40,246 nt of DNA from Desulfonema limicola (GTDB lineage: Bacteria; Desulfobacterota; Desulfobacteria; Desulfobacterales; DYRC01), in NCBI GenBank assembly GCA_020718925.1, contig DYRC01000003.1:1-40246 (forward strand), given 5' to 3'. Below, piece after piece: positions 203 through 40,246 of this stretch; position 1 is the first letter of the stretch, and every line of letters starts with the position of its first letter. Under the pieces are notes generated by a model. It was not told where the DNA came from. It made no database searches and saw nothing but the letters and a program-made list of their open reading frames with translations. A program made the position numbers and the translations under genes.

Positions 203-1659
203 TTATTTGGGCAATTCATCAGGCGAAATGCCAAGCGCGTCAGCAATTCCCTTTCCATACGCCGGATCAGCTTTCAGACAATTGCCGATATGTCGGAGTT
301 TGATCTCCTTCGGTGCTTCGGCAATGGCGCGGGCAGTATTTTCAAACAGAACTTTCTGCTGCGCCGGAGTCATCAGTCGGAAAAGCTTGCCGGGCTGTGA
401 GTAATAGTCTTCATCCTCACGATGATTCCAATGATCAGCCGCGCCTTCAAGACTGAGGGGCGGTTCGGCAAATTCCGGCTGCTGCTGCCATTGTGCGTAG
501 CTGTTCGGCTCATAACCGAGCGTGGAGCCGTAATTGCCGTCAACCCGCATCGCGCCATCGCGGTGATAGCTGTGAAACGGGCAGCGCGGGGCATTGACCG
601 GAATCAGATGATGATTCACGCCGAGCCGGTATCGCTGGGCATCGCCGTAGGAAAACAAACGTCCCTGCAACATTTTATCCGGTGAGAATCCGATACCCGG
701 CACAATATTTGCCGGATTGAATGCCGCCTGCTCAACTTCGGCAAAATAGTTTTCAGGATTACGGTTCAGTTCCATCACGCCGACTTCGATCAGCGGATAA
801 TCCTTGTGAAACCAGACTTTTGTGAGGTCAAACGGATTATAGGGACACTTTGCCGCATCTTTTTCCGGCATGACCTGAATGAACATTGTCCATTTGGGAA
901 AGTCGCCTTTTTCAATGCTGTTATACAGATCACGCTGATGGCTTTCCCTGCATTTGCCGATAATTGCCTCTGATTCTGCGTCTGTAAGATTTTTAATGCC
1001 CTGCTGGGTATGAAGATGAAACTTGACCCAGAATCGCTCGTTTTCGGCATTGATCATGCTGAAGGTATGACTGCCGAAACCGTGCATGTGGCGGTAAGAC
1101 GCCGGAATGCCCCGGTCGCTCATCACAACAGTAACCTGATGCAGGGCTTCCGGCAGAGATGTCCAGAAATCCCAATTGTTCAAGGCACTTCTCAGATTGG
1201 TGCGCGGATCCCGCTTGACCGCATGATTGAGATCCGGAAATTTCAGAGGATCGCGCAGAAAAAAACCGGCGTGTTGTTTCCTACCAAATCCCAGTTTCCC
1301 TGTTCAGTATAGAATTTGATAGCAAAGCCCCGTATGTCCCGCTCCGCATCTGCCGCGCCGCGCTCGCCTGCCACTGTGGAAAAGCGGGTGAAGAGTTCGG
1401 TCTTTTTTCCCACTTGGGAGAATATTTTGGCTTTGGTATAACGGGTAATGTCGTGGGTAACGGTAAATGTTCCGTAAGCCCCGGAGCCTTTGGCGTGCAT
1501 CCGCCGCTCAGGAATCACTTCCCGGTCAAAATGTGCCAGCTTTTCCAGAAACCAGACATCCTGAAGCAGCATCGGACCGCGTTTTCCGGCGGTCAGGACA
1601 TTCTGATTGTCAACCACAGGCGAGCCTGCATTGTTGGTCAGCTTTTTCTGTTCACTCAT
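203..1659 (-). pseudogene. katA: Monofunctional heme catalase (KatA-like, about 485 aa if repaired), split into two ORFs by a 1-nt frameshift in a homopolymer.
   Basis: ORF 1243..1659 encodes the catalase N-terminus ([22 protein letters not shown] ... VGNNTPVFF). ORF 203..1183 encodes the rest ([23 protein letters not shown] ... [14 protein letters not shown]). Adding one T to the T7 run (A7 on the + strand, 1259-1265) restores the expected [28 protein letters not shown] junction. Confidence 0.85.
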
Positions 1660-1714
1660 TTGTTTTCTCCTTTGTTGGTGTATTGGGGAATATAAAACAA
1701 TAATTGATATTTGA

Positions 1715-2318: not shown

Positions 2319-4058
2319 TCAGCTTGCCAATCTTGTTGTCCTCTCACAGAGCCTGAACACGCTCACCTTTTCCACCAATTCCTCGGCAATCCGGGCGTGG
2401 CTGTTGTTCAGGAGTGCCATCTCGCTGACCGCTTTGCTGATCTGATCGATCCCGGCTGCCTGCTCGCCGGTCGCGGCTGCAATGGCATTCATAAGAGAGC
2501 GGATATGACTGCTGCCTGTCGTGATACGGGTGAATATGTCATCAATCTCGGCAATCAGCATCAGCCCGTGATCCAGCCGGTCCATTATATCGGTTATCAG
2601 AATGGTCGTATTTTTAACGGCTTCTGCGGAGCGATGTGCCAGATTTTTCACTTCAGCCGCAACCACCGAGAATCCCGCGCCGGATTCTCCTGCTCTTGCC
2701 GCTTCGATTGCCGCATTCAGTGAGAGCATATTGATCTGAAATGCAATATCATCAATGACTTTGACGATTTTCCGCATTGCCTGCCCCGACTCGCCGATGC
2801 TTTTCATGGAATCTGTCAACTGCATCATAGAACGGTTATGCAGGATAGATTGCTTTGCTTTCTCAATCATCGTATCTGATGATGCGACAAGATTATCCGC
2901 CTTTGCCGCGTTTTCCGCATTGTTTTTTGCCATCGCATCTATCTGGTTCAGCGAAGCGGAGGTTTCCTCAATATTGGTCGCCTGACGGATTACGCCGTCT
3001 GCCAGCGTATGTGATTTTCCGATAATTCCCCCGATCATCTGATGCAGGCTTGCAATCATGCGGTTCTGAACCTCAGCCAGTTCGCCGATTTCATCTTTCC
3101 GATTCATCTTCAGGGTTTGGGTCAGATCGCCGTTTGCGATACAGTGTGAGCATTCGCAAAGCTGCCTCAGATTGCGGGAAATGCGTTTGGAAAAAACAAC
3201 CGCAGATACGGATGCGAAAAACCCGAGAATGCTGCCCATAATCAGAGATATACTGATGATTTCGCTGTGAAGTCTGCGAACATCATTTTTGTCTGTAAAG
3301 TACAGCAGCATCAGATTCCGATTTTCCGGGTCTTCTGTGAACGGTCTGATGATCAGAATACCGTCCTGCTGACCGACTGAGTAATGATCCGAGTAATAAG
3401 AAAGATCGTGCAGGCGAATATCCTCTGCTTTGAGCATTTCCTGTGATTCAGCAAGAATATTAACAGCATTGTTCTTTTTATCAAGAATCGCAATCACAGC
3501 ATTTTTGCCGGAGATACGTTTCAAAAATTTCGCATCAATGTTTTTCTTCAGTACCAGTGTACCGATAAATGCGCTATCTTTGATGACAGGCGCGTACAGA
3601 ACAATTCTCAACTGATGGTCTTCTGTTATAATCCTTTGAAAAATTTCCTGATTTTTCCATTTTTCTTTTGCAATGAAAAGTTGTTTTTCAGCGCTCTGAG
3701 TTTCCGTGCTTGCAATTAATTGATAATTTTTATCATAAAACTCAATAATATCCGAATTGACAATCTTTTGCTGCAACAGGAGTTTTTTGTGCAGCGGCTC
3801 GGTTTCTTTGGTGAACCATGCAATTTTGATCAAATCAGATAAATTCGGATCCGATACGACAAAATGAGTATATTTGCGATACTGCTCGATAACAAACCTG
3901 AAATCTGCAACGATTTTATCAATATCCTGCAATATTCTTTCATTTTTATCAGATACGAGAACCTTTTCCGACTGAACGGAAAATACGCATACCATTGACA
4001 AAATCGCTGCGATGGACAATCCGGCAGCAAACACAGCCAGTTTTGTTCCGATTTTCAT
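2319..4058 (-). CDS. Methyl-accepting chemotaxis protein: two TM helices, a ~250-aa periplasmic sensor domain, a HAMP domain and an MA signalling domain.
   Basis: Conserved MCP hairpin region (IAFQINMLSLNAAIEAARAGESGAGFSVVAAEVKNLA). A HAMP-like segment follows the second TM helix. The track start at 4076 is GTG, so I prefer the ATG at 4058 (MKIGTKL). Confidence 0.9.
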   Translation of the reverse strand: MKIGTKLAVFAAGLSIAAILSMVCVFSVQSEKVLVSDKNERILQDIDKIVADFRFVIEQYRKYTHFVVSDPNLSDLIKIAWFTKETEPLHKKLLLQQKIVNSDIIEFYDKNYQLIASTETQSAEKQLFIAKEKWKNQEIFQRIITEDHQLRIVLYAPVIKDSAFIGTLVLKKNIDAKFLKRISGKNAVIAILDKKNNAVNILAESQEMLKAEDIRLHDLSYYSDHYSVGQQDGILIIRPFTEDPENRNLMLLYFTDKNDVRRLHSEIISISLIMGSILGFFASVSAVVFSKRISRNLRQLCECSHCIANGDLTQTLKMNRKDEIGELAEVQNRMIASLHQMIGGIIGKSHTLADGVIRQATNIEETSASLNQIDAMAKNNAENAAKADNLVASSDTMIEKAKQSILHNRSMMQLTDSMKSIGESGQAMRKIVKVIDDIAFQINMLSLNAAIEAARAGESGAGFSVVAAEVKNLAHRSAEAVKNTTILITDIMDRLDHGLMLIAEIDDIFTRITTGSSHIRSLMNAIAAATGEQAAGIDQISKAVSEMALLNNSHARIAEELVEKVSVFRLCERTTRLAS

Positions 4059-36706: not shown

Positions 36707-37993
36707 TTATACCGCATAACGATAACCGTCTGCTTTTTGGATTACCTTGCAGTATTTATGAGAGAGTTCCAACCGTGTTCTGCCTTCAACCGGCATGTGA
36801 AAGATACCTGAAGCTCTTACGGTGATTCGTCCCGAATATATTCCCGCGTTTTTTCCTTTTGTAATAAAGGCTTTGACCATATCACCGGTCTGAAAACCGA
36901 AGAATGACTTCTGTCCGGTTCTGTGTCTGATAGGAAATCCGTATTTATCCGTTTGGCAGATCTGCCGAGTACCGAATCCCATAGCTCTGATCTGCAATGA
37001 TCCGATTCCGTCTGTCTTCAGAGTTTCGGGAGTACTCAATCCCACACATGCGGCATCTGCCCAGTGGGTTTTCGATAATGAACGCTGAATTCTGTTGAAT
37101 TTCGTCAGTCCGCCGCTTCCTGCTTCTACCGGACATCCGAATGATTTCAATCTTCCGAATAACGCCCATCGGGTAGCATTGACCGCCGCCGCATCTTTTA
37201 ACGGAGCTTTTGCCTGTGCTTTGATCTTTTTCAGCACTTCCGGCTTTTTCTTCAGAAAATCCTCTACGGGCTTATTGCCTTTTTTCTCATTACATGAACG
37301 GCAGGACAGCGTAAGATTGCTGATTCTGTCAGACCCGCCGCTGCTTCTCGGATTGATATGTTCGATTTCCAAAGGAACATCTTTCTTTCCGCAATAAGCG
37401 CATGTCCGCCGCCACTTTTCAAGCAGATATTCCCTGCACTCATATCCGGCAAGCGTTCCCTGCTGATATTCAACGCCGGAAATTTCAGGGTTTTCCATTT
37501 TCTGCGTATCAAACCGCACAAGTTCCTGAGAAATCGCCTGAATCGGAGATATTTTAATCAGACGCCGAATCCATGTTTCAACATTGGCAATGCGGCTTTC
37601 CAATGAAGGCGGCAGCCATCCTTTTTTGCGGGTACGGTTCATAAATCGCGGCTTGCGATAACGGGTATTCCGGTTTCTTCGTGATCGTCTGATTGCCCTT
37701 CTGCTCTCCAGACTGTCTCTGACTCTCTGACCACGATGTTCTATCTCCGCTGCAAAAACAACTTCTCCTGAAATATCATTGACAATCGCAAGCCCTGTCT
37801 TTTTGCTTCCCGGATCAATTTTGACTCTCAGCGGCATGGGTGAGGCATCAGGCACTTCGTGTTTCAGAATAATCGTGAACGGAAATCTGCGGAATACCGC
37901 CGCTTTTCCCTGTTTCAGCAATTCCCTTGCACGTTTCGGTCTGCATGGCGTCAATGTTCTGTTTTTCGTGTCTGTTACAAAAACTCTCTGCAT
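36707..37993 (-). CDS. iscB: IscB RNA-guided endonuclease (OMEGA system; a Cas9-ancestor type with a split RuvC domain and an HNH insertion).
   Basis: N-terminal PLMP-like domain (VFVTDTKNRTLTPCRPKRARELLKQGKAAVFRRFPFTIILK). RuvC-I KIDPGSKKTGLAI (D60). Arg-rich bridge helix RRAIRRSRRNRNTRYRKPRF. RuvC-II SQELVRFD (E157). HNH CAYCGK...EIEHINPRSSGGSDRISNLTLSCRSCNEKKGN. RuvC-III THWADAACVG (H310, D313). Confidence 0.9.
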   Translation of the reverse strand: MQRVFVTDTKNRTLTPCRPKRARELLKQGKAAVFRRFPFTIILKHEVPDASPMPLRVKIDPGSKKTGLAIVNDISGEVVFAAEIEHRGQRVRDSLESRRAIRRSRRNRNTRYRKPRFMNRTRKKGWLPPSLESRIANVETWIRRLIKISPIQAISQELVRFDTQKMENPEISGVEYQQGTLAGYECREYLLEKWRRTCAYCGKKDVPLEIEHINPRSSGGSDRISNLTLSCRSCNEKKGNKPVEDFLKKKPEVLKKIKAQAKAPLKDAAAVNATRWALFGRLKSFGCPVEAGSGGLTKFNRIQRSLSKTHWADAACVGLSTPETLKTDGIGSLQIRAMGFGTRQICQTDKYGFPIRHRTGQKSFFGFQTGDMVKAFITKGKNAGIYSGRITVRASGIFHMPVEGRTRLELSHKYCKVIQKADGYRYAV

Positions 37994-38241
37994 TTTTTAA
38001 AAGCTCCTTTAAGAGCATCAGCCTTGCGGCTGTAATGTTTGCCTCGCCAATGTTATAACGGCTTTTTACGCTCGGCACACTGACTTCACCTCTTTCATCT
38101 GTTTAATACCGAACAACAGAGCATAGAACTGGCAGGCATTCTATGGTGTTATGACCGAAATAACGTAGTTCTTTTCAGAACTCAGGCTGGTCACACATAG
38201 GACTCTCTCAAGCCCTTCGCGCAGGCGCGTGAGGGTGTGAC
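37994..38241 (-). ncRNA. Predicted omega RNA scaffold of IscB. Boundaries are approximate and the guide is expected at its 5' (higher-coordinate) end.
   Basis: This is a non-coding, hairpin-rich ~250 nt directly 5' of iscB on the same strand. Hairpins include cagccgcaaggctg and the ccctcacgcg..cgcgaaggg hairpin at 38209-38241. In characterised IscB loci the omega RNA occupies exactly this position. It was not checked against a covariance model. Confidence 0.5.
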
Positions 38242-38350
38242 TATTATAAGCCGATTGTTGCGGAGATACCCCGTCCAAGCCCTTCGCGCACACGCGTGAG
38301 GGTATGACATCAGCAGCGGTTTTTTTTATACTTACTATGCCCTTCGCGCA
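38209..38350. repeat. A 33-bp palindromic repeat in two full copies (30/33 identical) plus one 12-nt partial copy, separated by unique 34-bp and 30-bp spacers.
   Basis: Copy 1, 38209-38241: caagcccttcgcgcaggcgcgtgagggtgtgac. Copy 2, 38276-38308: caagcccttcgcgcacacgcgtgagggtatgac. Partial copy, 38339-38350: gcccttcgcgca. Confidence 0.8.
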
Positions 38351-38426
38351 TGTATAAGAAAACTTCTGATAAAAAATATGTCCACAGATATAGACAAAAC
38401 TATAGTAACTTCAATAAATAATTTGA

Positions 38427-39071
38427 TTATGTTACCAAAGATATTAGCTTGGTTACTATTGGAGAAAATTTATAATTCATAGTTCCTCCCCAGCCACTTT
38501 CTTGAATCAGTAATAATCCCATATTGATAAGTCCATTTATTAATAAAGCATCCTTACTTTCTGGACTAACCCAAAGAACTTTTTCTTTGGAATCGGAAGA
38601 TGAATCTTTATCGGAAGATTCTGTTCCAATAATAACCTCGCTATAATGAGAATGATTTATTAAGAACATTATCTCATCAGCAGAAATATCTCTGATTATT
38701 CTTGATAAAAGATATGATTCATGGGGAGTTATATCTTCATCCTTAATGCAGTTTTGAACCACTCTCTTCAGATATCTGATCTTTTCTTCATCAATAGTCT
38801 GAAGAACTGACAGAATCGCTTCATTAGTGATTTTATATTGTGAATCTGACATATTACGAATTTTATCTTCTTGCGATTTTAGGATATCTTCTATCTCCTT
38901 AATTGCCGTTTCAGTACGCTTTTTATAACGACCAAATGCTAAAGTGTTCATAAAAAGCGGAAGAAGTGCCGCAGTTCCTCCAACAGCAGCTATAGCCGTT
39001 GCAGCAATGCTCACTGGCAAACTACCACTCACCTTTTCCAAAAAAGATTCTTTTTCCATATTTTCCCTCAT
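38427..39071 (-). CDS. Hypothetical N-terminally membrane-anchored protein in a visibly AT-rich segment.
   Basis: TM segment LPVSIAATAIAAVGGTAALLPLFMNTLAF followed by a helical domain. An alternative ATG at 39059 has the better RBS (gaggga). No recognisable family. Confidence 0.55.
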   Translation of the reverse strand: MRENMEKESFLEKVSGSLPVSIAATAIAAVGGTAALLPLFMNTLAFGRYKKRTETAIKEIEDILKSQEDKIRNMSDSQYKITNEAILSVLQTIDEEKIRYLKRVVQNCIKDEDITPHESYLLSRIIRDISADEIMFLINHSHYSEVIIGTESSDKDSSSDSKEKVLWVSPESKDALLINGLINMGLLLIQESGWGGTMNYKFSPIVTKLISLVT

Positions 39072-39313
39072 GGATTAAAATTCAAAATATAAAATGAGAC
39101 TTTCATTAAAACACTTTATCTATTTCAACAAAACGCTGAATGTTTATCACATGATTTGAAGGATGTCAAACTATGTACATCAAAAAAGGAATGCTAAAGT
39201 ATTCAGCAATTCATTATGAGATATGGCAGGTTCGCCGTATCTTTATCACGGTGATTATCCGATGTCAGACAAAGCTGCCCTTGCCGGAAGTTTCTTTTTA
39301 TTCGGATTAACAT

Positions 39314-39340
39314 AAATCCCGCGATTTCATCAGCCCTGAT
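39314..39340. repeat. 27-bp direct repeat, copy A, upstream of mazEF.
   Basis: aaatcccgcgatttcatcagccctgat is identical to 40128-40154. Confidence 0.85.
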
Positions 39341-39435
39341 TTCAACCTCTTTCAACCCGCTTCTTTTCAATTCTTGACTTTTGCCCGCAAGTGATGATAC
39401 TGGATTATCTGATGAAAACAAAAGAGGAGGCTGAT

Positions 39436-40025: not shown

Positions 40026-40127
40026 AAACAGATTGATAATTATTATAAAATCGGTTAATTAAAGCATAATCATCTGACCGCAACCGAAATCTAAAAGGGA
40101 GTGTAAAACTTTGCTGCCCACTTGAAC

Positions 40128-40154
40128 AAATCCCGCGATTTCATCAGCCCTGAT
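40128..40154. repeat. 27-bp direct repeat, copy B, downstream of mazEF.
   Basis: aaatcccgcgatttcatcagccctgat is identical to 39314-39340. Confidence 0.85.
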
Positions 40155-40246
40155 GTTCCGCTCTGACTTCATAAAAAACAATCGCTGTCCTTTCATATTT
40201 TCCGTTGCTTTTTTCAATCTGTTCGGATATAAATTTCAAAAGGATT

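Follow-up and report, generated by a model that had tools for sequence, protein, structure and literature searches.

CRISPR arrays have become joined to IscB nucleases on several independent occasions, and serial duplication of omega RNA segments has been proposed as the origin of arrays (PMC10691335, which also summarises the CRISPR-associated IscB systems of Altae-Tran et al. 2021). In DelIscB (Zhang et al. 2025, PMC12660989), the guide RNA combines an array with an anti-repeat, works in cells and supports cleavage; about 100 nt between repeat and anti-repeat can be removed, and the repeat/anti-repeat hairpin itself could be truncated. For IscB elements of the transposon type, the omega RNA side has been assigned to the transposon right end (RE), and the elements show a preference for lying downstream of another gene in the same orientation (Meers et al.).

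Here we describe an iscB locus within a 40,246-nt stretch of bacterial DNA (the window) whose upstream region we somewhat favour reading as a chromosomal and unusually minimal, rudimentary CRISPR-like array of repeats and spacers belonging to the known CRISPR-associated IscB kind. The host genome assembly (4.01 Mb, 85% complete) is of Desulfobacterales type and derives from sulfidic cave samples. The iscB open reading frame (36707–37993, minus strand, ATG at 37993) encodes 428 aa with RRXRR/PLMP, RuvC and HNH domains, matches the Pfam RRXRR and HNH families as well as solved IscB structures (TbaIscB, 6.8e-46; OgeuIscB, 1e-25), and is, on these matches, an intact RNA-guided nuclease gene. Directly upstream and co-oriented lies an omega RNA scaffold matching the complete Rfam HEARO model (RF02033, model positions 1–211) at 38032–38241 on the minus strand (cmscan 143.6 bits against a gathering score of 83, E 3.3e-31), so that protein and RNA together have the composition of an IscB/HEARO OMEGA system. 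Genome searches returned one full iscB copy and one HEARO, and among 5.8 billion proteins the nearest other IscB relative is 72% identical, with no relatives between 74% and 100% identity for either a full-length or an N-terminal query.

Read 5' to 3' along the minus strand, the locus runs through a stump, spacer 2, repeat R2, spacer 1, repeat R1 (the start of the omega RNA) and iscB. R1 (38209–38241; read from 38241 to 38209, GTCACACCCTCACGCGCCTGCGCGAAGGGCTTG) is laid out as GTCACAC-CCTCACGCGCCTGCGCGAAGG-GCTTG, i.e., the 7-nt terminus GUCACAC, which supplies the 5' strand of stem P1, then the first hairpin and finally another three to four bases (CUUG). Because HEARO model position 1 falls at 38241, R1 is nt 1–33 of the scaffold. 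R2 (38276–38308, minus strand; read from 38308 to 38276, GTCATACCCTCACGCGTGTGCGCGAAGGGCTTG) is a 30/33 copy of these nucleotides whose boundaries match those of R1 at both start and end. Two of the three differences lie in the 4-nt hairpin loop and the third is C5->T; all of them keep the fold, the loop changes falling in the tetraloop and C5->U turning a P1 G-C pair into G-U. Spacer 1 (34 nt, 38242–38275, minus strand) stands directly 5' of scaffold nt 1 and is unique in the genome, as is spacer 2 (30 nt, 38309–38338, minus strand). The unit farthest from iscB, R3, is a 12-nt 5'-truncated stump (TGCGCGAAGGGC, 38339–38350, minus strand) corresponding to the 3' arm of the hairpin. The locus thus presents direct repeats with unique spacers of similar length, co-oriented with and adjoining iscB, in a minimal case: two full repeats and a stump, unevenly spaced with periods of 67 and 60 nt.

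These features bear out an earlier note on this DNA, made from its letters alone: its coordinates and identity count for the two 33-bp copies hold, alignment of both copies places two of the three differences in the hairpin loop, the 12-nt partial third copy and the 34- and 30-bp unique segments lie where it put them, and the first copy is indeed 216–248 nt from the iscB ATG. The note was also right to locate the repeats at the edge of the omega RNA region, but the first copy is itself omega RNA nt 1–33 within the HEARO match. The scaffold additionally carries an anti-repeat, GUGUGAC (38190–38196, minus strand), which is the P1 3' strand according to the structure line of the HEARO alignment, the sequence and constrained folds. 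In silico, this anti-repeat pairs perfectly with R1 nt 1–7 (GUCACAC) and over 7 bp, including one G-U, with R2 nt 1–7 (GUCAUAC), so the repeat is complementary to the scaffold anti-repeat over 7 bp. In constrained folds, the energies are about level whether P1 forms with R2 (-91.3 kcal/mol) or with R1 (-88.9 kcal/mol).

The repeated unit also coincides with a transposon end. In a related genome with 31 HEARO copies (G045), the seven copies inspected stop resembling each other precisely at HEARO position 1 on their upstream side, and in two of these seven the far end can be read downstream of iscB, where 12 nt follow a hairpin of almost identical sequence. Taken with the right-end assignment of Meers et al., this divergence indicates that the 33-nt unit is an IS200/IS605 right-end module and the guide-adjacent omega RNA start at once. 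The earlier expectation of either a guide-adjacent first stem or an IS200/IS605 left-end hairpin at this position is thereby borne out as to the guide-adjacent start and the transposon end, the end being the right rather than the left one (Meers et al.).

In the window, the iscB stop is followed after only 27 nt by the end of a convergent DUF4124 gene, and no second-end hairpin was found in this interval. Matching transposon ends were likewise found nowhere else in the genome, and neither the two hairpin ends nor the multiple copies or cognate TnpA of a mobile IS200/IS605 element are in evidence. Given its single copy, the missing second-end hairpin and the lack of matching ends elsewhere in the genome, the iscB element appears to be stranded, in a small toxin-antitoxin/defence-type islet. 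Fragments of a Y1 (IS200/IS605 TnpA-type) transposase occur only at two contig ends (C264:4060-4251 and C260:6-152), suggesting an unassembled repeated IS elsewhere whose ends are unlike the 33-mer.

Two contigs from one metagenome (Ga0316608), L094 and L101, emerged from a hairpin-pattern scan of metagenome contigs and resemble the window in omega RNA (about 87% identical) and flank; their iscB genes were not recovered. L101 is organised as a 21-nt stump, 35 nt, a full repeat, 36 nt and the omega RNA; L094 as a 27-nt stump, 36 nt and the omega RNA. Across the window, L094 and L101, spacer lengths are 30–36 nt in five of five cases and the distal repeat is 5'-truncated at all three loci, and repeats and scaffold are conserved while the spacers are mutually unrelated. 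Since the flanking conserved sequence is about 87–92% identical and the spacers show random-level identity, the spacers appear to have been replaced between related loci rather than to have drifted. Comparison with related loci, a check suggested at the outset, has in this way returned the same layout with differing spacer content in L094 and L101; among assemblies of the same population that reach the repeats we detected no ongoing change (4/4 identical). One L101 spacer holds a repeat vestige, CGAAGGGCG, and GGGTATC follows right after the repeat in both window spacer 1 and the L094 spacer, giving a shared start of 7–8 nt; together, these two features look like messy rearrangement rather than clean spacer insertion. 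The other matches to the hairpin pattern (L089-L093, L095-L100 and L102) represent one GC-rich sequence recurring across soil contigs and are unrelated; this sequence is apparently coding, and its genome record is a Rokubacteria genome.

Farther upstream, a stretch of about 220 nt (window 39185–39405) is conserved at about 88–92% in L094, L101 and a third contig, L072, with about 91% identity in the first two, and its presence in L094 and L101, upstream at varying distance, indicates that the neighbourhood is shared. No further copy of this stretch exists elsewhere in the host genome. On one side it bounds a slot whose co-oriented genes differ from locus to locus. In the window, the slot is occupied by a 214-aa ORF of no family (38427–39071, minus strand), co-oriented with iscB and with no Pfam or PADLOC match; in L094 by a HEPN AbiU2 abortive-infection protein (280–990, minus strand; PF18734, 2e-12) directly upstream of the mini-array; and in L101 by orphans of 273 aa and 73 aa, the gene directly upstream of the mini-array there (893–1714, plus strand) being, like that of the window, an unrelated orphan. 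This variety suggests that the IscB locus borders a variable defence-type gene slot. The conserved stretch also contains a 27-nt perfect repeat (39314–39340 and 40128–40154, the second within the region 40100–40246) that brackets an RHH/PemK (MazF-like) pair, and on the minus strand it is readable as a small conserved ORF of about 72 aa (...SLLAGKSQEL.RSGLKEVE...).

L072, from Desulfatirhabdium butyrativorans of the same cave system (DYRK01000578.1), carries segments at 2678–2957 and 3661–3734 that are 96–99% identical to parts of iscB, including a 57-aa C-terminal ORF, in another gene context and without a HEARO. By these identities it is a decayed second copy of the same iscB lineage, and its fragments are uninformative about the array. 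An empty-site comparison with the same-genus genome G001 was likewise discarded, this genome being about 70–76% identical and not syntenic here. At the end of the window, the last 55 nt (40192–40246) recur without a difference as the opening 55 nt of contig C38, on which the iscB locus probably continues.

We next asked how rare such upstream copies are by comparing the first 30–33 nt of each of 53 HEARO matches with its 600 nt upstream. The omega RNA start is repeated upstream at two of the 53 loci, the window (30/33) and a locus in a Dehalococcoidia chromosome (L062, OZ253455.1), these being the only two above background; other loci scored 13–21. One score of 21/30, at L050 in Marinobacter bryozoorum, reflects the left-end hairpin of a tandem neighbouring element: two complete IscB/HEARO elements stand there in tandem (276–515 and 2250–2489), and the left-end hairpin of the first one precedes the second omega RNA by 330 nt. 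Tandem end remnants were absent from the 51 other ordinary HEARO loci, and the end motif was not found in tandem in G045 (31 HEARO copies; seven inspected), which argues that transposition does not ordinarily produce such repeats.

In L062, five or six repeats can be counted, and the five best keep an exact 61-nt period. This array (2383–2720; about 4,030,500–4,030,830 on the chromosome) consists of five 29-nt repeats and a degenerate distal one, and is joined directly to a HEARO omega RNA with an intact iscB. Its last repeat starts where the HEARO model does, at position 1, and so is the omega RNA start; the unit includes the first hairpin as well as the 5' strand of P1. The sole Cas1-like match in this genome, 2.5 Mb from the array, has a borderline score of 23.8 bits. 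Because the L062 IscB is 56% identical to that of the window and array-less IscBs are closer, at 72%, the two arrays are probably of independent origin.

Searches for spacer targets, another of the checks originally proposed, yielded no credible match in the host genome, plasmids or phages. For spacer 1, there were no protospacers in its own genome, phages, plasmids, IMG/VR or GTDB representative genomes; for spacer 2, these collections were likewise negative with a single exception. The repeat-proximal part of spacer 2 has one exact 22-nt match in a Saccharibacteria genome contig (L114, CAYHYS010000069.1, 4894–4915), with no extension, on a chromosomal contig with TrpRS and FtsH nearby, and we judged this match to be compatible with chance. 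A search of the 85%-complete host genome for Cas1 (PF01867) gave no match, a crude scan found no other CRISPR array with three or more repeats in it, and Rfam CRISPR-DR was not matched. The Cas1/Cas2 module or additional arrays that characterise a canonical CRISPR-Cas locus were therefore not found in this genome.

Reading the locus as a rudimentary array, we propose the following. An IS200/IS605-type IscB element appears to have become stranded while keeping its right end and omega RNA, and the first 33 nt of the omega RNA to have been copied upstream at least twice, with about 30–36 nt of unrelated DNA in between. Candidate routes for the addition of units are a stray Cas1-Cas2 integration in an ancestor or a TnpA-type reaction at the transposon end. 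Stray Cas1-Cas2 integration reportedly duplicates its target as a new repeat, as Nivala et al. are said to have described in 2018. No sigma-70-like promoter was found on the minus strand between 37900 and 39300, so transcription likely reads through into the array from the co-oriented 214-aa upstream ORF. The repeat-proximal 16–20 nt or so of spacer 1 would serve as the working guide of the complete omega RNA. Alternatively, R2 might replace R1 as the partner of the single anti-repeat GUGUGAC, with the intervening 67 nt looped out, and this pairing would offer IscB spacer 2 as a second guide; that DelIscB tolerates deletion between repeat and anti-repeat suggests, by analogy, that R2 could present spacer 2 in this manner.

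Several features of the locus speak against the array reading. The repeat/anti-repeat duplex is only 7 bp long, and R1 should usually win the anti-repeat pairing in this model, since it is nearer to the anti-repeat and pairs with it perfectly. Full repeats number only two, besides the stump; the periods are uneven, the distal repeats are truncated at all three related loci, and the spacers bear the marks of messy rearrangement noted above. Neither spacer matches nor, in the 85%-complete genome, Cas1 or another array were found. On the structural side, the array reading is the best fit among the alternatives raised in the earlier note: the unit starts at the guide/scaffold junction and carries the P1 5' strand, the spacers are 30–36 nt long and differ in L094 and L101, L062 shows the same design, and the arrangement is published as CRISPR-associated IscB.

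Another alternative raised there, a REP/BIME-type dispersed palindrome, draws on the unit being a GC-rich imperfect palindrome of REP-like size, and with it we considered chance and assembly artefact. The genome-wide count of the 33-mer, proposed as a check, gave two occurrences in 4.0 Mb, adjacent to each other at the iscB locus, and neither the 33-mer nor its core pattern has a match beyond R1 and R2 in the 4.01-Mb, 85%-complete assembly. For the assembled 85% of the genome, REP/BIME dispersal is refuted. Chance is opposed by the 24-nt core pattern, which at up to three mismatches matches twice in the window versus 0.00 times in 100 shuffles, and for the stump by the genome-wide frequency of the repeat 12-mer, from which 0.00075 occurrences would be expected within 200 nt upstream. 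Four independent assemblies/samples agree at every one of the 708 nt upstream of iscB, so the repeats are not an assembly artefact (a fifth contig, extending only 169 nt upstream of iscB, ends short of the repeats), and one copy is part of the 143.6-bit HEARO match. We accordingly assign this whole group of explanations a negligible probability. It is also improbable, though less extremely so, that the hairpins are RNA processing or insulating elements that protect or define the omega RNA 5' end in a read-through transcript rather than presenting guides. The likely read-through from the upstream ORF, the general preference of IscB elements for co-orientation behind an upstream gene (Meers et al.) and the fold-preserving changes of R2 would all suit such a role, but other HEARO loci in the same read-through situation lack such copies, and a simple protective hairpin would have no need of the 7-nt terminus that is part of the copies.

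A more serious competitor, possible although we rate it below the array reading, is that R2 and the stump are inert scars, i.e., right-end modules left over from earlier insertion, excision or recombination, with R1 alone working, as the 5' end of the one omega RNA, and the spacers being ordinary flank reshuffled during exchange of the adjoining gene slot. The repeated unit is, after all, a minimal transposon end, bounded at HEARO position 1 and with look-alike hairpins at both ends of related elements (G045; Meers et al.). The truncation point of the distal copy and the gene next to it differ among the window, L094 and L101; a repeat vestige sits inside one L101 spacer and two spacers share their first 7–8 nt; tandem IscB elements do exist, as at L050; and targets, adaptation genes and a regular period are all missing. 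Set against this are the lack of tandem end remnants at 51 other ordinary HEARO loci and in G045, the full terminus and fold-preserving sequence retained by R2, the spacing of 30–36 nt in all five cases, and the regular array of identical design in L062. Moreover, no TnpA reaction is known to leave a 33-nt end behind.

The specific version of duplicated IS200/IS605 ends put forward in the earlier note fares differently in its two parts: the unit is such an end with a subterminal hairpin, but nothing points to successive insertions. Beyond about nt 33–36, the second copy is followed by no omega RNA sequence, and tandem ends are absent from the seven inspected G045 copies and from the other ordinary HEARO loci scanned. 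A second, truncated omega RNA behind R2 was rejected, as there is no partial HEARO or other Rfam match in 38242–38430 and spacer 1 shares no 7-mers with omega RNA nt 34–78. Plain tandem duplication of a 67-nt unit is ruled out by the two spacers being unrelated, and a transition-biased decay of the 5' part of the stump was not significant (about 0.04 versus the local null).

Returning to the array reading, a bolder extension of it is that a CRISPR array is being born here and the locus captures a living intermediate, in which units are added and exchanged without Cas1-Cas2 by way of the right-end module, in a TnpA- or IscB-dependent manner, and in which a stranded IscB uses several guides for defence within a variable islet; we regard this extension as unlikely. 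The proposal that arrays of Cas9- and Cas12-type systems originated by serial duplication of omega RNA segments (PMC10691335) rests mainly on finished arrays. At this locus the repeat can still be read, letter for letter, as the opening 33 nt of a recognisable HEARO omega RNA, also the transposon end, and the array has only two to three units. If the distal unit were functional, the locus would be a minimal natural two-guide IscB and a system in which to study how an array starts and grows without adaptation genes; if inert, it would show that transposon-end debris can mimic an array, a caution for automated CRISPR calls near IscB and TnpB genes.

Among known systems, the ordinary IS200/IS605 IscB elements (GstIscB, OgeuIscB and the 31 G045 copies) share with the window the same protein and omega RNA family and a guide taken from the DNA flanking the transposon right end. 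They carry a single end module, their second end bears a look-alike hairpin, and they are often multicopy, whereas the window has extra upstream end modules, no second end and a single copy. Type II CRISPR-Cas resembles the locus in that stem P1 is comparable to the repeat:anti-repeat duplex and the guide lies 5' of the repeat, and differs from it in having Cas9, a separate tracrRNA gene, Cas1/Cas2 and a long RNase III duplex. Closer still are the CRISPR-associated IscBs (PMC10691335; DelIscB, PMC12660989), which likewise have a short array directly upstream and co-oriented, fused to an omega-RNA-like scaffold with an anti-repeat, with adaptation genes absent nearby and the spacer 5' of the repeat as in a Cas9 crRNA; the window differs from these in its two full repeats plus stump and uneven spacing. 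Its repeat is moreover literally omega RNA nt 1–33, the duplex is the 7-bp P1 only, the array is on a bacterial chromosome, and guide use is putative, whereas DelIscB has been shown to cleave. Finally, L062 and the window differ in repeat number (five or six in L062, of which the best five keep an exact 61-nt period, against two plus a stump), but both have a repeat that starts from HEARO position 1 and comprises the P1 5' strand and first hairpin, a last repeat that is the omega RNA start, and degenerate distal repeats.
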